A DNA stretch of 64,000 nucleotides from Macrostomum lignano (taxonomy: Eukaryota): the NCBI GenBank assembly GCA_002269645.1, contig NIVC01003468.1, positions 1 through 64,000 of the forward strand. Reading direction: 5' to 3'. The notes beneath the pieces are model-generated. The model saw nothing but the letters and a program-made list of their open reading frames with translations, did no database searches and was not told the origin of the DNA. The position numbers and the translations under genes were made by a program. Shown piece by piece: positions 1 to 13,116 of the stretch. Every line of letters starts with the position of its first letter. The stretch's first letter is position 1.

Positions 1-470
1 TAACCGCCTTCTTCCGAAGAAGTGGAGTCGGTAGAATAAATTCGCAGCATGCCCCGTGTAGTAACTCGGGGAAACTCGTTCGACGAGAGATAAGTAAAGT
101 TCAAAAAAATTAATTTTTTCAATTATCCAGCCACTACCGTTGGTGTTGTAGACATCGACTTTGCGCTCCAGCTCTGTAAACTGCTGTCTCCACCAATCAT
201 CAAACTCCTGTATATCTACCATCAATCCGAGTTGTGTGCTCATCCATTTATCCTCTCCCTTGACAGCTTCTGACGCCTGCACTCTGACCATGCGCAAATT
301 CAGTTTGATCTGAGCTTTAACAGAGCAATTATCCGAAGAGTCGAAGCGGATTTCAAGACACTGCTGTACTGCGATTTTGCAGAAATCGAGAGAAACTCGA
401 ATGTTTCAGTGGCAGCTCCAGGTGTAAATCGATGAACTTGAAGAACATCTTCGTGAGCGCTGGTTTTTAA
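1..470 (-). pseudogene. N-terminal region of Polinton-type protein-primed DNA polymerase B, frameshifted, truncated by window start
   Basis: Manual minus-strand translation: ...VKAQIKLNLRMVR...FTELERKVDVYNTNGSGWIIEKINFFELYL..., then after a frameshift CEFILPTPLLRKKAV. This matches the 'GSGW...I..L.I...YIPLP..L..KKA' segment that precedes the exonuclease in Maverick PolB. Not in the ORF track. Confidence 0.6.
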
Positions 471-780
471 CGCCAGGGTGAATGAAGGTCGCTACTACAT
501 TGAAGAAGGGAAGATAGTATTAAAAATATTAATGGAAAGTGGAAATGATGAGAAATGTCTCTGGGAGTTATGGAAGTCGAACATTTTATTGCCCTTTTTT
601 ACACTTACGAGTATACTATTTATCCTACTACCTTATATCTAGATTTAATATTTTTTTATTAAACAATACGAGCTACGTATAAGTGTAAAAAAAGAATTTG
701 AAGAGTTATTATTGAAGAAATAGATGGAGTTCTGCTTTCGCATTTTTGTCAATTCATCTAATGAGGATAAAAATGTCTCA

Positions 781-1465
781 TTATTGTGAGTTCTCCGGCT
801 TAATCCTGTTGGAACCATTTGGGAATTGTTGTGTAGCGAGAAAAAATATAAATAATTCCGTTGCTAAGAGACAGGAATGCAACAAACAGAAATGCATGAG
901 CTCATAAAACCAGCAATGGAATGAAAAACTTACCACTCGGTCAAATTCGTGGCTGACAGCTGGGTCCACCGGCTCGTCCTCTTGACTCGATGAGGTGGCC
1001 ATTGCAGAGGATAATATTAGAAATAGAGCGACATTCAGTGAAGAACTCAATGCTGCTGAAATTCCAGTGTAAAAGTGTTGTTTGATAAATTTAACCCAAG
1101 AGCGATTCTGTCAGAGATGTAGCGGAGTGATAAATTTCCAGCATTCAGAGCTCTATGGAGCAGAAATTGAATCTAACCAAAGTCATGCTTGACAAATCAA
1201 ATTCATGTCATTCTAAACATTGGGTATCATAGATCATCAATTTCATATTATACTCATAGAGTTGAGTAGATGCTGTGAACCTAACGGTAATTCTATAAGC
1301 AGGTGAACCTATAACTTCTTCCAAGATATTCATGGTTGAAAAAAAACAAGTAATGAACTCAACAAAGTCCAAGAAAGTACAAAAGCTTTCATTAAAAGCA
1401 ACCATCAAACCATTATATTTCTGGTAAAGCATTTCGTAATGCAAAAAATCATGCTCGTTAGTCAC
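781..1465 (-). CDS. Unknown viral-region ORF(s), probably one disrupted gene with hydrophobic segments
   Basis: ORFs 1208..1465 and 781..1050 are co-oriented; the 781..1050 frame stays open upstream to about 1170 without an ATG. No recognisable motif. Confidence 0.25.
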
Positions 1466-1696
1466 CCTACTAATTAAAGCTGCTTATTAAAGCTTTATTA
1501 TAAGAATAAGTTTAAATAGTAAGCCTAAATGATTTTCTTTTTCATTTTGTTTAGGATATTAATGAGAAACCTGTATGAGCACGATGAGGTGCAACGTAAT
1601 TAGTTAATATTTATGCTGGGTAGAATGCATTGGTTTTTTCCTAAAAATCTACAAATCTCGTTTCCCCTACTTTTAAATACTTTGAACTGGGACACT

Positions 1697-2449
1697 TTAA
1701 GAGCTGCTTAAGCGAATGCGAGTTCCTCCCCCAAGGTCAATAAAATACTCGCCCTCGACTCTGCTCGGTAGTACCAGCTGAATGCAGACTGACGGTGGCA
1801 TCGGTGGCATGGCTTCTACGACTGGGATGTCACCGGTTTGGATTTCTGGTGCGGCCGGTGGAGTAGGAGGTTCGAATTCTCGCAGGAGATCGGATAGGCT
1901 TGCTTCTGCCATCATTCTGGCTTGCTCCATATTTTTTCCTGCGACTGGAACAGGCCTGTAGGGTGGCATCTGTTGCTGCTCAGCTTCTTAATTTGCCAGC
2001 TTAACAGGCTCCAACTCGATATCCTCGAAGAAGGCAGTATCCAACTCCGAAGGAGCTGCAAAACCAGTGGAATCGTCAGCTGGGAGGCCGGCATCAGCAG
2101 CTGGCGCAGCGGTTGAACCAAAAAAATCTGATTGCTGCTCCACAGCGGCAAGTGCAGCGGCAAGCAGATCAAAGTTTGCGTCGGTAGCGTGCTGAAAATC
2201 TTCACCAGGCTGCTGAAAGACGCCCTGAATTGTCTGGCTGAGTGCGCTGACCGGTGCTCGACTGCGCTCGATAATGTTGAGCTGCTCTTGACGCTGGGCA
2301 GCCTCCAAGGCAGCAAAGCGGGCTTTTTTTAAATCTCCAGGTGAGCTCCAGTTAATAACGATGTGGTTTTTATGAGCTCGAACTTGCTGGCGCACATTAA
2401 AGAGCTCACGCGTCTGGCACTCGTGGCAAAAGCATCCAGCGACTGACAT
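1697..2449 (-). CDS. Unknown Ala/Pro/acidic-rich protein with N-terminal CxCxxC, split into two ORFs (1988..2449 and 1697..1969)
   Basis: Adjacent co-oriented ORFs of similar composition inside the Polinton; MSVAGCFCHEC start; followed by an AT-rich tract. Confidence 0.35.
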
Positions 2450-3463
2450 TGCAGCTGCTTTTCATTTTGTGACGTTTTAAGCCACCGAGCTCACATGAGT
2501 TGCAGGAAATGCATACCTCGTACACATATGAAGGGCAGCGCGATTTATTCATTCCAAATTTTTTAATCTTTGAGTAGAAAAATCAAATTCAAATTAAATT
2601 CAAATTAGAAGTAGAAACTTATGTTCCGTATTCAAGTATACGGTGTCTTATATACCTCGCTTATTCGAATCTGTGTTAATAAAAACATAGCCGCTATGTT
2701 TACAGCTTAGCTATGCTTACAGTCAGTAACCCAGCCGTCTCAGAAACCGGTTTTTTTTAATAGTTTTATTAGAAAACCCAGGTACAGAGCCTCTATTAAA
2801 AGCATACATGTACAAAAGTTCCTTTGCACTTGCCGCCAACTGGAACTCCCGACCAGACTGGGGAGCAATAAAACTGATAATTATGGAGCGTCCAATTCCA
2901 TTTAGCAACACACCCACCACCCCAGGAAAGGGGGAGATGCTTGGCTATTATAATCTTATTAAAGCAGCATCTTGTTATTGAAACTTTTGCCTAATTATTG
3001 TCTGAAATTCCAAATTCCAAAATTCCGAAATCCTTAAATTCCAAAAGCAAGTGATTTTTCAACAGTTGGTAGCTCAAATTTTAGACATGAATTGCAAATT
3101 GATTTTATTGTAATCATTGAAATAAAGACACGCCCCTCCTCCTTTTACGATACCCGATGGAATATTAAATATCATTCAGAGGCAAAGCATTGCCTGATTT
3201 TATGAACCGAACCCCCTGTTTCCATCGTTGCAGAACACGCATTTGCCAATACTCATTCATTGCGGTTAACGGAATTCCCGCGGAGCCCCACCCCATTCGT
3301 AAATACTTGCACCAATGTACTCTCACTAGGAGGTCTCATGGAATTTCCATGGCCTGCCCTGCGGCAGAGTGGCTCAATGGATTTACATAGGTAAGTATGT
3401 TCACTCACTAGGGCCCATGGCTTTTCCACGGAAATTCATGCGGCAGAGTTCTGTTATCCAATA

Positions 3464-3706
3464 CTACTCTTCTGGAATTTTGCCAAAAACCTTTTGCACC
3501 TGGGTTTCCTGTATGCCGTCGATAGTTTCTTTGACCTGATCAATATTTTTCTTAGCTTCTCCATACCCAGGCTTATGAAACTCTGTGGCTGCTTGGACAA
3601 ACTCATTGTAGGATTGTTGCTCCTTATTTATTAGCCCGGTAACTCTCTTTTCTGCTTGTGCTAGCTTCTCCAATTCAGAGATATGATATGAACTTTTCTG
3701 CTTCAT
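3464..3706 (-). CDS. Small coiled-coil-like viral ORF, 80 aa, head-to-head with MCP
   Basis: Helical E/K/Q-rich sequence; ATG 30 bp from the MCP ATG across an A/T tract. Confidence 0.4.
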   Translation of the reverse strand: MKQKSSYHISELEKLAQAEKRVTGLINKEQQSYNEFVQAATEFHKPGYGEAKKNIDQVKETIDGIQETQVQKVFGKIPEE

Positions 3707-3736
3707 TTCTTATTTTATTTTATTTTTAGTTAAAAA

Positions 3737-5023
3737 ATGAACGACCCATTGACACCAGTTTTCTACAAAATTAACAAGCCTATTTTGAGTGATGATAGCA
3801 CAATCAAAGCGAATCAGGTAAGAGTTCCCAGTCAGGAAAATCAGAATGAAACTAATCTCGGTCCTGGCCAAACACTGACATTTACATACAATGGATGTTC
3901 GTCTTTGGTTAGTGTGCACAGTCTTAAGAGCGGCTTCCATATGACATTTCAATTCAAGACAAAAGGTGGTGCGGATGCGGCTCGTGCTAACGTTGACAAG
4001 CATGATGCGGATGTGGCTCTGATCAGTAACTTTTGGGCGTACATGTTCAAGGAGTTTAGTGTATCGAATGGGAGCACTGAGTTGGAGCGAATCGCCAACT
4101 TTGGAATTGTCTATGACGCTCATTGTTTGATCGAGAATCCTGATTTTATTCAGTTGGGAAGTGGTGCGGGTTTTATTGCAGATGAAAAAGAAGGAGATAT
4201 CAATGACAGTGGCTATAAAAATAGGAAGAAGAGATACAACTATGCATTGCAAGGTGCAGATGATGCTGCTAAGAACCCGCTGTATCGGTCTGTTGATGTA
4301 TTTGTACCATTGAGATTCATGAGTGGATTCTGTAATACATTTAATCGACTGACTAGTAACTTTAGCTACACCTTTAGGATGACTAGAGATGATCGCAGTA
4401 GAGTGTTGTGGACTGGGGCGGACCACGCTAGGATGGAGGTGAAGCTAACCGGAATCGAGCTGTATTTGGAAGTCATTGAGCCAAAGACCGCACTAAAAGC
4501 GGATTATCTTAAGGCAATAGAGAAGGACATTGATGTTGCATACACGGCCTACATGTGTCGAGATGAGCGAAACGAAACTAGAACAAACATCTGCATTAAA
4601 GAGGGATCATGCAGCAATCCAAGGTATATTATTATTAACATGAGAAACCCAAATAGCATTATACGCTACATGCATGGAGACGTGCGGTCCATTCAGCATG
4701 AAATCAGTGATAATCTTTACCCTGCACTGCCACAAAATGGAGATTTCAGTCAGAACAAGATTAGCAAATTTTACAGCGAGTTGGTCGACTTGGCTGTGAA
4801 AGAGAACAATGGAATTGCTATCACTGCTCTTCAATATGGAACTCTATATCCGATGTTTGGAGCTGATGTGTCTGCCAGACAAATGCCTACTGATAACAGC
4901 CCTGTGAATATCGTGACTAACATTGAGAGGACTGCCGCAACACCCGTGGACCTGTACATTGTCTATGCATTTGAGAGGAAGGTGAAGCTTAACATGATCA
5001 ATAACTCGTCTAGTAAAGTTTGA
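3737..5023 (+). CDS. Major capsid protein (double jelly-roll, Polinton/adintovirus hexon-like), 428 aa, intact
   Basis: Size and pattern (D.S...; TLTFTY; NFWAYMFKEFSVSNGSTELERIANFGI; VDVFVPLRFMSGFC; PRYIIINMR; YPMFGADVS; LYIVYAFER) fit Polinton MCPs. Intronless, immediately upstream of the penton. Confidence 0.8.
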   Translation: MNDPLTPVFYKINKPILSDDSTIKANQVRVPSQENQNETNLGPGQTLTFTYNGCSSLVSVHSLKSGFHMTFQFKTKGGADAARANVDKHDADVALISNFWAYMFKEFSVSNGSTELERIANFGIVYDAHCLIENPDFIQLGSGAGFIADEKEGDINDSGYKNRKKRYNYALQGADDAAKNPLYRSVDVFVPLRFMSGFCNTFNRLTSNFSYTFRMTRDDRSRVLWTGADHARMEVKLTGIELYLEVIEPKTALKADYLKAIEKDIDVAYTAYMCRDERNETRTNICIKEGSCSNPRYIIINMRNPNSIIRYMHGDVRSIQHEISDNLYPALPQNGDFSQNKISKFYSELVDLAVKENNGIAITALQYGTLYPMFGADVSARQMPTDNSPVNIVTNIERTAATPVDLYIVYAFERKVKLNMINNSSSKV

Positions 5024-5046
5024 ATAATTTTTTTATTGAAAAAAAA

Positions 5047-5910
5047 ATGGAAGCGATTGCTGAAAGACTAAATAATATTATTTCTCACTCTAAGGAGAGC
5101 ATTCCTATTACAATAACTGGGCGAATTAATGACTCAAACGGGATGTTTGTTGAAAAATTAGAGCAGGCGATTCGCCTGGATCCAGGCGCTAATTACCATG
5201 TCTATCTTAACGACTTCACTGGTTGGTCAAACGTTCCCAATGTGATGGCAGCAAATAATAAGTTTTATTACAAATGGAAAGGTGCAGCAGCAGACCCTGT
5301 GGTATTCCATGTGAGCACGCAAAGTGTGGATACCTACAATAACTTTCTAGAAAATGTCTTTACTAAAAGAGGCCATTTCGAGACACCTGATGCGAGTAAG
5401 CCAGATAAGAAACTGTTCCCTGTCAAACTAACCTATGATCTCACTGTAATGAGAGTGGTCATGCAAGTTCACAAAGATGCGGAGGTTGAGTTTAAAGATG
5501 ACACTTGGTATAGGGAATTGGGATTCGAGAAGAAAGTTTATAAGGCAGAATCCACAGCGCGGACCGCCACTCAAACGTCGGGGGCTGTTAGCATGGCCCG
5601 GGAAAATGTAAGCGGTTTGTTCTTAGCACCCAATATAGCAGACATTGTAAAGGGTTTGAATATTCTAATCAGAAGTAATCTCAGTCTTGATTGGGTATTT
5701 AAGGGAAAGCGAACGAATATTTTGTACAAAATCTCCAACTCTGTTGCTGGAGGACAGATGCTGGTAGAGAAACCAAATCCAGTGAAAAAAGTTGTATTGA
5801 GTAATAAGGAGATTCACGAGATTGTGCTACAGTTTGAGACTGAAGATGGGGTGGGTGTTGATTTCAACGGTGAAGAGTTTGTATTGACGTTAATCATTGA
5901 GAGAATGTGA
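5047..5910 (+). CDS. Minor capsid protein (penton, single jelly-roll), about 287 aa, intact
   Basis: IRLDPGANYHVYLNDFTGWSNVPNV..NNKFYY at the N-end and LNILIRSNL...ILYKI...EKP...IVLQFETEDG.GVDFNGEEFVLTLII at the C-end are characteristic of Polinton pentons. ATG at 5047 follows an A-tract; the ORF track starts at TTG 5020. Confidence 0.85.
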   Translation: MEAIAERLNNIISHSKESIPITITGRINDSNGMFVEKLEQAIRLDPGANYHVYLNDFTGWSNVPNVMAANNKFYYKWKGAAADPVVFHVSTQSVDTYNNFLENVFTKRGHFETPDASKPDKKLFPVKLTYDLTVMRVVMQVHKDAEVEFKDDTWYRELGFEKKVYKAESTARTATQTSGAVSMARENVSGLFLAPNIADIVKGLNILIRSNLSLDWVFKGKRTNILYKISNSVAGGQMLVEKPNPVKKVVLSNKEIHEIVLQFETEDGVGVDFNGEEFVLTLIIERM

Positions 5911-5914
5911 GAAA

Positions 5915-6154
5915 TCACAATTGTTTAATGATTTCTGCGAAGTTATAGTAGCTGTCGTAATCTTTTACGTAGGTTACTCCATAATTATGAAACCAGTGTC
6001 TTTGGAGAGCTAGATTAATATTAGGGACATTGATATCAACGCCGGGCCAATATTTTCTCATGTACTCGCTGCATTCTAGTTTGCACTGGTACTTGCTCTT
6101 GTAATTAGGCTCGTGCGCTTTGTAATAAGAACCTGGAGAGACGATTGGAAGCAT
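5915..6154 (-). CDS. Small Tyr-rich unknown ORF, 79 aa, convergent with penton
   Basis: ATG-initiated; stop lies 4 bp from the penton stop; last ORF before the terminal region. Confidence 0.4.
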   Translation of the reverse strand: MLPIVSPGSYYKAHEPNYKSKYQCKLECSEYMRKYWPGVDINVPNINLALQRHWFHNYGVTYVKDYDSYYNFAEIIKQL

Positions 6155-6269
6155 TTTTATTGAGAATTTAATTTTTTTCGGAGGATGAGCACCCTGCGCT
6201 GATGATTTAAAGTCTTTGGGATCTGGTTTCGCGTTGCGGATTGAATGTGGGGAGAAGAATGCAGATTAT

Positions 6270-6661
6270 TTTCTGATTGTTTCGAAGATGCTATGGGTGG
6301 ATGTCAGTGGATGATGTAGGACACTTGTTATGCTCTGATTCTGTCGTGGAGGAAGGAGGATAGGTTAGGAGGATTATGTTCGAAGTTTTCGGAACAAGTG
6401 TAACCCTCTGATTCAGGCATAATATGGATGGATTTAATGGAGTTATGTTCGAAGTTTTCGGAGCAAGTAGGACACCTGTTATGCTCTGATTCTGTCAGGG
6501 ATAATATGGATGGATTTAATGGGATTATGGAAGACGTTTTGTGAGCGAGTGCGACCCCCCTTTTTTTCTGATTCTGTCGGGGATAATATGGATGGATTTA
6601 ATGGGATTATGGAGGACGTTAAAAATTTTGTCCCAGAAGCCCCCTCATGCATTCTACTACT
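6270..6661 (+). repeat. Polinton terminal region A with internal modular repeats and terminus ...AGAAGCCCCCTCATGCATTCTACTACT
   Basis: Modules TGTTATGCTCTGATTCTGTC, ATGTTCGAAGTTTTCGG and ATAATATGGATGGATTTAATGG recur 2-3 times; the terminal ~55 bp recur at 7540-7592. Confidence 0.6.
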
Positions 6662-7461
6662 CTGTCTATGGCAAGACTCTTGAGAATGAGCGGAAAAGAA
6701 CAAACCTGAAACTTGTTACCTCATCAGAGCCTGCTGTTATTCAGGCAAATATGTCAAAGCCAACATTCAAAGAACTCCACATCTTTAATAGCTACTTAGG
6801 TGTGATCATATTTTACAAAACCAAGGTGACGCTGCGCAAGCCGATCTATACAGGTGTCACTGTTCTCGACGAATCAAAACGTCTGATGTACCAGTTCTTC
6901 TATGGCATGAAGCAGCAGTACAAGGATAAAATGAAACTCTTGTACACCGACACAGACAGTTTTATTATGGACATTCAAACAGAAGACATTTATCAGGACA
7001 TGCTGCAGCAAAAAGATTTGTTTGACTTGTCTGAGTATGATGAATCTTGCAGGACACAGAATGGCGATCAAGTGTTTGACGCCACTAACAAGAAAGTGAT
7101 TGGGAAAATGAAGGACGAGATTGCTGGTGACATAATCACTGAATTCTGAGGGTTGAGAGCAAAGTCCTATTTTGTAAAATGTGAGTCGTCAGACCCAATT
7201 CAAAAATCAAAGGGAATTCAGAAACGCGTGGTTAGGAAGGAAATTAATGAAGCTGAATACAGAGACGCCTTGAATTACAACAAAAAGACATCACATGAGT
7301 TCTGAAAGCTACAATCCAAAAACCATATTATTCACACAATTCAGCAAAAGAAGATTGGACTGTCGGGTGCAGATAACAAGAGATTCATTTTTGATGACAA
7401 TATTAACAGTCTACCGTTCGGGCACTGGAGATTAGGTTTAGGAGATGGAAGTTGGGTTTAG
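6662..7461 (+). pseudogene. C-terminal part of protein-primed DNA polymerase B (element B), 5'-truncated, two in-frame TGA stops
   Basis: SVYGKTLENERKR (motif B), LYTDTDSF (motif C), KKVIGKMKDE, EF*GLRAKSY, DNKRFI...SLPFGHW. Stops at 7147 and 7303; natural stop 7459-7461. Confidence 0.9.
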
Positions 7462-7592
7462 GAGGTGGAGATTAGGAGATTAGGAGATTAGGAGATGGAA
7501 GTTGGGTTTAGGAGGTGGAGATTAGGAGATTAGGTATTAGGATTATAACACGTGAAAAAAATTGTCTTAGAAGCCCCCTCATGCATTCTACT
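7462..7592 (+). repeat. Second Polinton terminus-like sequence (element B), directly after the PolB stop
   Basis: GGAGATTA-type short repeats, then GGATTAT..ACGT.AAAAA..TGTC..AGAAGCCCCCTCATGCATTCTACT; the last 24 bp are identical to 6635-6658. Confidence 0.55.
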
Positions 7593-8099
7593 TACAAAAT
7601 ATTTTCGCTAACAACAATCACTATCCCATGTGGAATTACTGCTATTAACAGGAAAGTGATTTTATCCATATGAAAACATAACATCAGATGAGGTAATCAA
7701 GGAAAAAATTACCCTTAATCGAAAAGTTTTATTCCAAACGAACTCAATCTTCAATTACTGAAGACGAATACGAGCGTATAAATACGTGGGAAAAAATGGA
7801 ACCACTTTAACTGCGAAACTCTAAAAGACTATCACTATGGGCCGTATGCAGAAAGCTCTGTCTAGGGTAGTCCGGTCTTCAAAAGCTAGTCTAGACTTGG
7901 ATTTGGTATGCAGAAACACAAAGTTAGACCAGTCTACTATAGCAGAACTAGGCTAGCTAGACCATAGACTATAGACTGAACTACCCAAGTCCGGACTAGC
8001 TAGTCTGGACTAGGCTTTCTGCATACGGCCCCATGTTTGTCTTAAAGCAGATATTTTATTACTGGCTGACGCCTTTGAAAACTTTCGAGCCCAAACATA
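7593..8099 (+). pseudogene. Central fragment of a third, more decayed pPolB copy (element C), interrupted by a MITE
   Basis: FYPYENITSDEV...; removing the MITE restores NCETLKDYHYVCLKADILLLADAFENFRAQ, matching the Maverick PolB 'DYHDLYLKTDVLLLADVFENFR' motif. Confidence 0.75.
7840..8030. mobile_element. ~190-bp MITE with 17-bp perfect TIRs
   Basis: GGCCGTATGCAGAAAGC (7840-7856) and GCTTTCTGCATACGGCC (8014-8030); ATG present on both flanks as a probable 3-bp TSD (PIF/Harbinger-like); interrupts the PolB frame. Confidence 0.8.
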
Positions 8100-8290
8100 C
8101 GAGGGGCGATCAAAAAGTTCTGTCACTGCATAATTTTTTCAGCACATGAGACTTCTCTTAAATTGATTTTAGTTGTTACCATAGACATACTATGTCCCCT
8201 ACTTAAGCAGAAATTTTTGAAGCCACTCTTGCTTAGCTCGAATCTACAGCATTTTTTCTTCATCACCCCTGTGCGACTATGTCAGTTTCA
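8100..8290. mobile_element. Solo mariner-like terminus
   Basis: TA followed by CGAGGGGCGATCAAAAAGTTC, resembling the TIR of the mariner at 30714. No partner TIR found in the window. Confidence 0.45.
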
Positions 8291-8809
8291 AGCGAAGCCA
8301 TACATGCCATACATACAAATCGAAGCTCGTTTGCGTGAGCAACATGGGGAGTCTGCACCGTCATATTACACAAAATGCCCTAACACCTCAAACCAACCAA
8401 CCCCATCGCAATACTTTCAACTACTGAGATCTAATCGGGATAATATTCATACTCGTACTTGTCATGATTGGGCTTCTGGGACAACCAAATCCCCCTTGGA
8501 TCAACATCTACTAAAATCTTTTTGTCACACAAAGCTCTTATATTTAAAATTAGCTATCCCAGTGCAATACTTACAACCGCTCATCTAAGGGTGATAAAGT
8601 AGACAACCACCCCCATTCTCGAGAACAACAAAATGCCCCTTAGATCAAATGCAACTAAAAACATCAAATCTGGTATTCAAACCTCACTGATTCCATTTGT
8701 ATGGAGTAATAACTAATAGCTAATAGCTAATAGCTTGACTTTACATTATAATGCTTAAAAAATCAGAGTATTTCAGTAATGCTCAAAGTATTTTATGCAT
8801 AAAAAACCG

Positions 8810-11800
8810 CAAGGCCAAAATCCTTCACAATCTGGCCTCACCACTCAAGGCCGAAATCCTTCACAATCTGGCCTCACCACTCAAGGCCGAAATCCTTCAC
8901 AATCTGGCCCTAACTCAAGGCCAAAATCCTTCACAATCTGGCCCTAACTCAAGGCCGAAATCCTTCACAATCTGGCCCTAACTCAAGGCCAAAATCCTTC
9001 ACAATCTGGCCCTAACTCAAGGCCGAAATCCTTCACAATCTGGCCTCACCACTTAAGGCCGAAATTCTTCACAATCTGGCCCTAAATCAAGGCCGAAATC
9101 CTTCACAATCTGGCCCGAACTCAAGGCTGAAATCCCTCACAATCTGGCCTCACCACTCAAGGCCGAAATCCTTCACAATCTGGCCTCACCACTAAAGGCC
9201 AAAATCCTTCACAATCTGGCCTCACCACTCAAGGCCGAAATCCTTCACAATCTGGCCTCACCACTCAAGGCCGAAATCCTTCACAATCTGGCCTCACCAC
9301 TCAAGGCCGAAATCCTTCACAATCTGGCCTCACCACTCAAGGCCGAAATCCTTCACAATCTGGCCTCACCACTCAAGGCCGAAATCCTTCACAATCTGGC
9401 CTCACCACTCAAGGCCGAAATCCTTCACAATCTGGCCTCACCACTCAAGGCCAAAATCCTTCACAATCTGGCCTCACCACTCAAGGCCGAAATCCTTCAC
9501 AATCTGGCCTCACCACTAAAGGCCAAAATCCTTCACAATCTGGCCTCACCACTCAAGGCCGAAATCCTTCACAATCTGGCCTCACCACTCAAGGCCGAAA
9601 TCCTTCACAATCTGGCCTCACCACTCAAGGCCGAAATCCTTCACAATCTGGCCTCACCACTCAAGGCCGAAATCCTTCACAATCTGGCCTCACCACTCAA
9701 GGCCGAAATCCTTCACAATCTGGCCTCACCACTCAAGGCCGAAATCCTTCACAATCTGGCCTCACCACTCAAGGCCGAAATCCTTCACAATCTGGCCTCA
9801 CCACTCAAGGCCGAAATCCTTCACAATCTGGCCCTAACTCAAGGCCAAAATCCTTCACAATCTGGCCCTAACTCAAGGCCAAAATCCTTCACAATCTGGC
9901 CCTAACTCAAGGCCGAAATCCTTCACAATCTGGCCTCACCACTTAAGGCCGAAATTCTTCACAATCTGGCCCTAAATCAAGGCCGAAATCCTTCACAATC
10001 TGGCCCGAACTCAAGGCTGAAATCCCTCACAATCTGGCCTCACCACTCAAGGCCGAAATCCTTCACAATCTGGCCTCACCACTAAAGGCCAAAATCCTTC
10101 ACAATCTGGCCTCACCACTCAAGGCCGAAATCCTTCACAATCTGGCCTCACCACTCAAGGCCGAAATCCTTCACAATCTGGCCTCACCACTCAAGGCCGA
10201 AATCCTTCACAATCTGGCCTCACCACTCAAGGCCGAAATCCTTCACAATCTGGCCTCACCACTCAAGGCCGAAATCCTTCACAATCTGGCCTCACCACTC
10301 AAGGCCGAAATCCTTCACAATCTGGCCTCACCACTCAAGGCCAAAATCCTTCACAATCTGGCCTCACCACTAAAGGCCAAAATCCTTCACAATCTGGCCT
10401 CACCACTCAAGGCCGAAATCCTTCACAATCTGGCCTCACCACTCAAGGCCGAAATCCTTCACAATCTGGCCTCACCACTCAAGGCCGAAATCCTTCACAA
10501 TCTGGCCTCACCACTCAAGGCCGAAATCCTTCACAATCTGGCCTCACCACTCAAGGCCGAAATCCTTCACAATCTGGCCTCACCACTCAAGGCCGAAATC
10601 CTTCACAATCTGGCCTCACCACTCAAGGCCGAAATCCTTCACAATCTGGCCTCACCACTCAAGGCCGAAATCCTTCACAATCTGGCCTCACCACTAAAGG
10701 CCAAAATCCTTCACAATCTGGCCTCACCACTCAAGGCCGAAATCCTTCACAATCTGGCCTCACCACTAAAGGCCGAAATCCTTCACAATCTGGCCTCACC
10801 ACTTAAGGCCGAAATTCTTCACAATCTGGCCCTAAATCAAGGCCGAAATCCTTCACAATCTGGCCCGAACTCAAGGCTGAAATCCCTCACAATCTGGCCT
10901 CACCACTCAAGGCCAAATCCTTCACAATCTGGTCTCACCACTCAAGGCCGAAATCCTTCACAATCTGGCCTCACCACTCAAGGCCAAAATCCTTCACAAT
11001 CTGGCCTCACCACTCAAGGCCGAAATCCTTCACAATCTGGCCTCACCACTCAAGGCCGAAATCCTTCACAATCTGGCCTCACCACTCAAGGCCGAAATCC
11101 TTCACAATCTGGCCTCACCACTAAGGCCAAAATCCTTCACAATCTGGCCTCACCACTCAAGGCCGAAATCCTTCACAATCTGGCCTCACCACTCAAGGCC
11201 GAAATCCTTCACAATCTGGCCTCACCACTCAAGGCCAAAATCCTTCACAATCTGGCCTCACCACTCAAGGCCGAAATCCTTCACAATCTGGCCTCACCAC
11301 TAAAGGCCAAAATCCTTCACAATCTGGCCTCACCACTCAAGGCCGAAATCCTTCACAATCTGGCCTCACCACTCAAGGCCGAAATCCTTCACAATCTGGC
11401 CTCACCACTCAAGGCCGAAATCCTTCACAATCTGGCCTCACCACTCAAGGCCGAAATCCTTCACAATCTGGCCTCGCCACTCAAGGCCGAAATCCTTCAC
11501 AATCTGGCCTCACCACTAAAGGCCAAAATCCTTCACAATCTGGCCTCACCACTCAAGGCCGAAATCCTTCACAATCTGGCCTCACCACTCAAGGCCGAAA
11601 TCCTTCACAATCTGGCCTCACCACTCAAGGCCGAAATCCTTCACAATCTGGCCTCACCACTCAAGGCCGAAATCCTTCACAATCTGGCCTCACCACTCAA
11701 GGCCGAAATCCTTCACAATCTGGCCTCACCACTCAAGGCCGAAATCCTTCACAATCTGGCCCTAAATCAAGGCCGAAATCCTTCACAATCTGGCCCTAAC

Positions 11801-13116
11801 TCAAGGCCGAAATCCTTCACAATCTGGCCTCACCACTTAAGGCCGAAATCTTCACAATCTGGCCCTAAATCAAGGCCGAAATCCTTCACAATCTGGCCCT
11901 AAATCAAGGCCGAAATCCTTCACAATCTGGCCCTAACTCAAGGCCGAAATCCTTCACAATCTGGCCTCACCACTTAAGGCCGAAATCTTCACAATCTGGC
12001 CCTAAATCAAGGCCGAAATCCTTCACAATCTGGCCCGAACTCAAGGCTGAAATCCTCACAATCTGGCCTCACCACTCAAGGCCAAAATCCTTCACAATCT
12101 GGTCTCACCACTCAAGGCCGAAATCCTTCACAATCTGGCCTCACCACTCAAGGCCGAAATCCTTCACAATCTGGCCTCACCACTCAAGGCCGAAATCCTT
12201 CACAATCTGGCCTCACCACTCAAGGCCGAAATCCTTCACAATCTGGCCTCACCACTCAAGGCCGAAATCCTTCACAATCTGGCCTCACCACTCAAGGCCG
12301 AAATCCTTCACAATCTGGCCTCACCACTCAAGGCCAAAATCCTTCACAATCTGGCCTCACCACTCAAGGCCGAAATCCTTCACAATCTGGCCTCACCACT
12401 AAAGGCCAAAATCCTTCACAATCTGGCCTCACCACTCAAGGCCGAAATCCTTCACAATCTGGCCTCACCACTCAAGGCCGAAATCCTTCACAATCTGGCC
12501 TAACCACTCAAGGCCGAAATCCTTCACAATCTGGCCTCACCACTCAAGGCCGAAATCCTTCACAATCTGGCCTCGCCACTCAAGGCCGAAATCCTTCACA
12601 ATCTGGCCTCACCACTAAAGGCCAAAATCCTTCACAATCTGGCCTCACCACTCAAGGCCGAAATCCTTCACAATCTGGCCTCGCCACTCAAGGCCGAAAT
12701 CCTTCACAATCTGGCCTCACCACTCAAGGCCGAAATCCTTCACAATCTGGCCTCACCACTCAAGGCCGAAATCCTTCACAATCTGGCCTCACCACTCAAG
12801 GCCGAAATCCTTCACAATCTGGCCTCACCACTCAAGGCCGAAATCCTTCACAATCTGGCCTCACCACTCAAGGCCGAAATCCTTCACAATCTGGCCTCAC
12901 CACTCAAGGCCGAAATCCTTCACAATCTGGCCTCACCACTCAAGGCCGAAATCCTTCACAATCTGGCCCTAAATCAAGGCCGAAATCCTTCACAATCTGG
13001 CCCTAAATCAAGGCCGAAATCCTTCACAATCTGGCCCTAACTCAAGGCCGAAATCCTTCACAATCTGGCCTCACCACTTAAGGCCGAAATTCTTCACAAT
13101 CTGGCCCTAAATCAAG
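8810..13116. repeat. 4.3-kb minisatellite, 36-bp unit (34-bp variants) with higher-order structure
   Basis: Unit CAAGGCCGAAATCCTTCACAATCTGGCCTCACCACT; a diagnostic variant cluster recurs at ~9001, ~9891, ~10790, ~11760-12060 and ~12960. Confidence 0.95.

Follow-up and report, generated by a model that had tools for sequence, protein, structure and literature searches.

Two Polinton (Maverick) ends abutting disrupted pPolB genes from other Polintons in Macrostomum lignano

The closest described systems are the Polinton or Maverick elements (animal "adintoviruses" of the Alpha-PolB type; Polintoviricetes). Statements on cited work, here and below, concern the accessible parts of each source. 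PolB of the PF03175 type is termed Alpha (PMC8502044), and the target site duplications (TSDs) of Polintons are given as 5–8 nt (PMC10748475) or 6 nt (PMC8097293). Target choice by Polintons is described only as unspecific in the accessible literature searched, and integration of the EMALE virophages showed no sequence specificity (PMC8547959, PMC12220804). Nesting of one Maverick within another is already known from Trichomonas.

The window, i.e. the whole stretch of DNA analyzed here, comprises 64,000 nt of Macrostomum lignano contig NIVC01003468.1. It displays two Polinton ends, each directly linked to a disrupted pPolB gene from another Polinton (Table 1). The first end belongs to element A and is followed by part of the pPolB of element B (junction 1). 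The second end, that of B, is followed by remnants of the pPolB of element C (junction 2). The arrangement is probably a nest, formed as integrases inserted one element after another at a single spot crowded with transposons, a reading that predicts no preference for PolB.

Part of the stretch is contained in 20 of the 22 runs listed. Four runs from four studies (X1, X5, X15 and X19) were compared with positions 5600–8600, using assembled contigs, not reads; X1 is the best match to the stretch and may be the window's own source. The contig observations refer to the longest 32 of 9693 pieces, with 24 of 793 loose ends seen.

Table 1. Positions of features in the window, with the evidence or remarks for each.
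Feature	Position	Strand	Basis or remark
N-terminal part of A's own pPolB	1..405	-	extends past the start of the window; directed away from the right end of A
Open frame interrupted by one stop	1700..2461	-	ORF list
Double-jelly-roll major capsid protein, 428 aa, frame intact	3737..5023	+	Pfam PF21738, homologues, tblastn
Likely minor capsid protein, 287 aa	5047..5910	+	position and co-occurrence
Small ORF, 79 aa, opposing the capsid genes	5915..6154	-	ORF list
Right terminal region of A, end at 6658	6266..6658	+	repeats; contig boundary
C-terminal quarter of pPolB (B), start inside motif B	6659..7434	+	45% identity to P0004; family contigs
G-rich 50-nt tandem array past the PolB end	7427..7542	+	TRF
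Second terminus (B end)	7516..7592	+	last 24 nt equal A's end; inner part diverged
Decayed mid-gene pPolB relic (C)	7593..8099	+	alignable at 7642–7835 and 8041–8097; split by the MITE, cut at 8099
MITE-like element in C, 32-nt inverted ends	7839..8031		arms 7839–7870 and 8000–8031
5′ end of a further low-copy element, after TA	8100..8375	+	contig starts
Satellite of 36 nt adjoining the nest, 121 copies	8810..13106		TRF

Element A and the position of its end

Element A is a young, high-copy Polinton. Single-contig depth in X5 is 184–278 on A and 253–346 on B as against 4–8 for low-copy contigs, and in X19 it is 1108 on B as against 18–29, where contig depth is a rough guide and gives no copy number. 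A carries the N-terminal part of its own pPolB, which was overlooked in the preliminary description. A profile of 45 homologous pPolBs matches positions 55–342 on the minus strand (model positions 130–226, i-E 4.2e-6), and the region has a weak tblastn match to the PolB of L018, a related viral locus. Since the PolB of A is on the minus strand, it is the capsid-side end of A that abuts the PolB of B, and the two elements are antiparallel, whereas B and C run in the same direction.

The major capsid sequence matches PF21738 with an E-value of 7.6e-5, which is below the cut-off; PF21738 is found in nine of nine homologues. By tblastn (E = 1e-16) the sequence is also similar to a gene of locus L008 that itself scores PF21738 at 3e-41. 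The open reading frame that follows has tblastn homologues in six of 26 PolB-related viral loci, and its Atlas matches are unnamed viral clusters at 0.98. Its product is likely a minor capsid protein, to judge from position and co-occurrence. The small ORF that opposes the capsid genes shows a weak match to a 136-aa ORF of L020 (E = 8e-4) and no Pfam match. The interrupted frame upstream of the capsid genes gave no Pfam match and no usable Atlas match (positions 1991–2452 gave none), and the pieces at 400–3700 gave no Pfam name. Locus searches with the capsid protein of A or its alignment returned no relative in viral or metagenome contigs.

A continues upstream of the window. With 341 ORFs from the 26 related viral loci as queries, positions 1–8800 gave no match for an integrase, ATPase or protease, and the window pieces searched gave no Pfam match for a packaging ATPase or protease; genes for the latter two may be situated farther upstream. 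The interval between the start of A's PolB and the capsid genes (480–3700) likewise has no integrase, ATPase or protease. If PolB adjoins the left end, A would measure about 10.5 kb and would be without these three genes.

The right terminal region of A is deep in all four runs and contains degenerate 82-nt subterminal repeats at 6413–6620. A 24-nt motif is present as an exact sequence at 6635–6658 and at 7569–7592, both on the plus strand. The pair is situated within a 43-nt pair of 88% identity, and gapped local alignment extends the likeness of the two ends to about 80 nt. The 24-mer is the longest exact direct repeat spaced by at least 300 nt in positions 1–8800. The maximum in 200 first-order Markov simulations is 17 nt, thus the recurrence is far beyond chance. 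An exact search with the terminus gave no matches in viral contigs and none in metagenome contigs, and the end motif is absent from the 26 PolB-related viral loci.

The position of the end is given by the contigs. An X5 contig of 1163 nt (contig 26) tracks the window at 6500–6658, and the next 1005 nt are a different flank. The deep PolB contigs of X19 and X5 begin at 6659 of the window and are preceded by further PolB-side sequence; deep contigs with other sequence before 6659 are the expected picture of uninterrupted copies of the family. Because the X5 contig departs at 6658 and the PolB contigs take up at 6659, the true end of A is at 6658. Bases 6659–6661, an extra ACT, are thus target sequence, and both ends terminate on the identical base. 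The preliminary description had placed the same terminus twice in the same orientation, ending at 6661 and 7592; the repeat is confirmed by the exact 24-mer but the first end is moved to 6658. Junction 1 is a flush join at 6658/6659 with zero common bases.

On the minus strand the end begins with AGTAG. It has one AGT triplet, and the (AGT)n type of repeated end motif that had been invoked does not describe the end of this family. Only right-facing ends are found within the window. Three other readings of the terminal sequences were discarded. That the motif is an internal repeat disagrees with the contig match that stops at 6658 and the PolB contigs that begin at 6659, and an (ACT)2 end with a 3-nt microhomology at junction 1 disagrees with the same 6658/6659 boundaries. 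The third reading, a further terminus at 8463–8484, came from an inverted minus-strand likeness to the subterminal motif at 20 of 22 positions (0 of 100 shuffles, with the pattern picked post hoc); this site however belongs to a degenerate 156-nt repeat, and the terminal bases are missing from it. That repeat is found at 8402–8713 and is of low copy number.

No contig that bridges junction 1 was found among the longest 32 of 9693 pieces. With both sides of the join high-copy, an assembly error may have fused two repeats at this location. However an assembler needs an overlap, and this is a join without common bases that coincides with the terminus. Any unique contig spanning two repeats would also be very short, whereas the 32 pieces listed are the longest. 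Neighbouring junction 2 is bridged independently by an exact 249-nt contig of X19 (7505–7753), which extends 88 and 161 nt on either side. Misassembly at junction 1 is therefore very improbable. X5 has no cover at 7519–7821; this contig gap proves nothing, and both it and the unspanned junction 1 are contig holes that are evidence of nothing.

The polymerase fragments of elements B and C

The translated sequence of 6661–7434 (with X at stops) matches residues 1003–1254 of the 1256 residues of P0004, a pPolB homologue with PF03175 on record; the E-value of the match to full-length PF03175-bearing proteins is 1e-54. It has 284 matches among 884 candidates, with at most 46% identity to full-length pPolBs, and those PolB matches that carry a name come from cnidarians, molluscs and one insect. 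This first fragment has in-frame stops at 7147–7149 and 7303–7305 and zero frameshifts. B differs from the four family contigs listed at 18 of 929 letters (about 2%).

The depth of the G-rich array is at the family level up to about position 7476; the copies vary, and there are indels and loose ends at 7445–7476. The bin that contains the B end (7519–7619) has depths of 1111, 167, 45 and 0 in the four runs, as against 202525, 10199, 2356 and 649 at 7317–7417. In each of the four runs the end of B is scarce and its PolB high-copy, and for this reason B may not be one element but a deletion product, or a chimera with its joint in the G-rich array. The B-type end itself may represent a rare subfamily or a recombined end. 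At position 6620 most family contigs depart from A and agree there with the end of B. An X15 contig that carries junction 2 (contig 13) breaks at 7569, the very position from which A-type and B-type ends have the same sequence; this break may represent a second version of junction 2 with an A-type end.

The abundance of B's parts bears on an alternative to nested insertion, in which A and the PolB of B belong to one element, or to two copies of one family, that underwent rearrangement at the site. The right end would have been joined to an internal PolB site by inversion or one-ended transposition, and/or recombination in the G-rich array would have joined the PolB of B to the end of an older element, thus only junction 2 would be a plain insertion. 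The similar X5 depths of A and of the B PolB agree with this, as does the N-terminus of A's PolB, which points away on the opposite strand in the geometry of an inversion at a PolB break. So does the rare end next to a common PolB, with the family departing from the window sequence near 7476 in the tandem array. The flush join at 6658/6659, precisely on the terminus, is however what an integrase would produce, and same-family identity is inferred from depth alone. Inward of the last 24 nt the ends of A and B differ, which the two inverted ends of one element do not; as they differ in abundance as well, they are not two ends of one molecule. Rearrangement in place is on balance unlikely.

The second PolB fragment (7642–7835 and 8041–8097) matches residues ~668–751 of P0004, with profile i-E values of 4e-4 and 1.5e-4. 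Two frameshifts and one stop are found in the 65 codons of its first part, and the frameshift-aware score of the fragment is 84.8 as against 17–24 in eight shuffles. Residues 1003–1254 of P0004 thus come first and residues ~668–751 second, and the fragments are 5′-truncated and out of gene order as originally described. Each end had also been said to be directly followed by PolB. This is the case at junction 1, but the first 49 nt beyond junction 2 (7593–7641) are no better than shuffles, 76 of 300 of which reach their PolB score.

Also missed originally was the splitting of the second fragment by a 193-nt inverted-repeat element. This MITE-like element is of very high copy number, and we take its ends to resemble those of PIF/Harbinger. 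An empty form, with 7834 joined to 8031, is present in X1, X15 and X19 (three of the four runs), and there are loose contig ends at both borders; the site is empty in one allele or copy. Contigs with other flanks begin at 8098 in X1 and X15. The element that starts beyond this position is perhaps mariner-like, by resemblance; positions 8100–8600 gave no Pfam match. Tandem repeats make up 44% of positions 8800–64000. Besides the 36-nt satellite, dozens of differing minisatellites are found in 8810–64000, and the GC content climbs from about 40% to 50%.

C has single-copy depth, with no close copies in the four runs. Its condition is pertinent to the other mechanism that had been put forward, i.e. 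terminus-to-internal joins from defective protein-primed replication; such joins would have arisen by template switching, and the product would then have been integrated. Slide-back initiation is found in adenovirus and phi29; no paper on slide-back initiation in Polintons was found in the literature searched. A and the PolB of B may be one family, judging from depth, and could have co-replicated. However C, a single-copy frameshifted relic, probably no longer served as a template for replication at the time of the join, and junction 1 is without microhomology. Defective replication is unlikely at junction 2 in particular, where the target looks like an old chromosomal relic, and as an explanation of the locus it is exceedingly improbable.

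Order of insertion and choice of target

The Russian-doll order of A in B in C proposed in the preliminary description fits the contig evidence and the order of ages, with nesting as the best reading: B has two stops and is about 2% removed from the family contigs, and C is single-copy and frameshifted. Under nested insertion, the old Polinton C would have decayed in the chromosome first. The element ending at 7592 would then have inserted into C in the same orientation. The young high-copy A would have been last, inserting antiparallel into the PolB of B at motif B. An rve integrase may have made both joins, as suggested by the flush junction 1 and by the relatives, where rve is found in 18 of 18 integrase ORFs (from 18 of the 26 related viral loci).

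Four joins, involving three kinds of element, are found within 6658–8100; they include those of the MITE and the further element, which hit 7839–8375. From this pile-up, and from the abundance of tandem repeats beyond 8800, we infer that the locus attracts insertions. The spot might do so through its chromatin state, possibly read by a chromodomain of the integrase. A C-terminal match to the Pfam Chromo domain (E-value of at most 0.0014, two over the cut-off) is found in seven of the 18 related integrases, those of loci L008, L010, L012, L014, L016, L017 and L023. It is possible that the Chromo domain of these integrases acts as a guide to silenced chromatin.

Certain observations do not favor the nest. 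Junction 1 has no bridge among the contigs listed, the end of B is rare relative to its high-copy PolB, and the chromodomain is known only from distant relatives (PolB 29–44% identical). In addition, tens of copies of 10–17 kb occupy little of a large genome. A double nest would seldom arise there by uniform insertion, and a regional or Polinton-wide bias would be required.

A narrower bias had been suggested, i.e. that the family prefers the pPolB of resident Polintons and thereby disables relatives or uses safe landing sites. Both termini in the window are in alignable PolB or at most 50 nt from it, and a double Polinton-in-Polinton nest asks more than uniform insertion. However the two sites are about 350 codons apart (~residue 1003 versus ~650 of P0004), the 6-nt flanks are unrelated, one target is of a young and the other of an old family, and the relative orientations are opposite. 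No target sequence or position shared by the two sites was found. The median homologous PolB of 1261 aa represents 22–36% of a 10.5–16.9-kb element; two PolB landings, given nesting, are expected with a chance of 0.05–0.13 before any bias from the recognition of PolB. The flank in X5 contig 26 is unplaced on the family C-terminal PolB or on C among the matches listed. In each of the 26 related viral loci PolB is single and collinear, and none has a broken, re-ordered one, a weak control as the loci were selected as virus-like contigs. The window was also drawn from a very large scan, which favors oddities, and no report of PolB-directed Polinton insertion was found in the literature searched, which reached few subscription papers.

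With two events, distant sites, unrelated flanks, a chance of 5–13%, and a MITE and a mariner-like end inserted in the same 1.5 kb, targeting of the polymerase gene of relatives is not borne out, and a preference for resident pPolB is quite improbable. Equally doubtful is an integrase that homes to the PolB of young and old Polintons, knocks out competitors and builds Russian-doll arrays; if true, this would be the first gene-directed warfare among endogenous DNA viruses. In the nest, the two hits on PolB are proposed to reflect its being the largest of the genes and the easiest to recognize.

Comparison with known systems

The elements share with described Polintons a PF03175-related pPolB, a double-jelly-roll capsid (PF21738 is below the cut-off, the homologues are strong), subterminal repeats next to an end that begins AG and may be of the inverted type, and a predominance of decayed copies; 96% of vertebrate loci are degraded (PMC8097293). 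They differ in that the end motif of vertebrate Mavericks is (AGT)2 or (AG)3 (PMC8097293) as against one AGT triplet here. Integrase, ATPase and protease were not found in the visible part, and the best full-length PolB matches are 46% identical. The end sequence is now fixed for a high-copy Polinton family that has no close relative in the databases searched.

Ngaro elements in EMALE virophages and retroelements in cryptophyte PLVs are also mobile elements inside endogenous Polinton-like viruses (PMC8547959, PMC12220804). There the invaders are retrotransposons with a counted preference and a bias to intergenic DNA, whereas here the invader is itself a Polinton. The elements with chromodomain Gypsy integrases (chromoviruses) are reported to favor gene-poor heterochromatin (PMC6839031, citing Gao 2008). 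They resemble the seven of 18 related Polinton integrases with a Chromo match; the accessible literature consulted has no Polinton equivalent. The accessible parts of PMC10120064, 10.1101/2025.02.07.637071 and 10.64898/2026.10.13.758929 contain nothing on Polinton-in-Polinton nesting.

The Mavericks of Trichomonas vaginalis display the same Maverick-in-Maverick nesting or concatenation (PMC12289875), and the present locus, as a nest, would be a tidy example of this known behavior. The accessible passage names no target gene. Mavericks represent about 40% of the T. vaginalis genome (PMC12289875), thus nesting there is expected by chance, whereas the depth of the present family is tens-fold. A tens-copy family that nests twice at one spot allows a direct count of flanks. 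Flanks enriched in Polintons or silenced repeats, if true, would point to chromatin-guided integration, and flanks enriched in PolB alone, if true, would point to a new kind of inter-element conflict.
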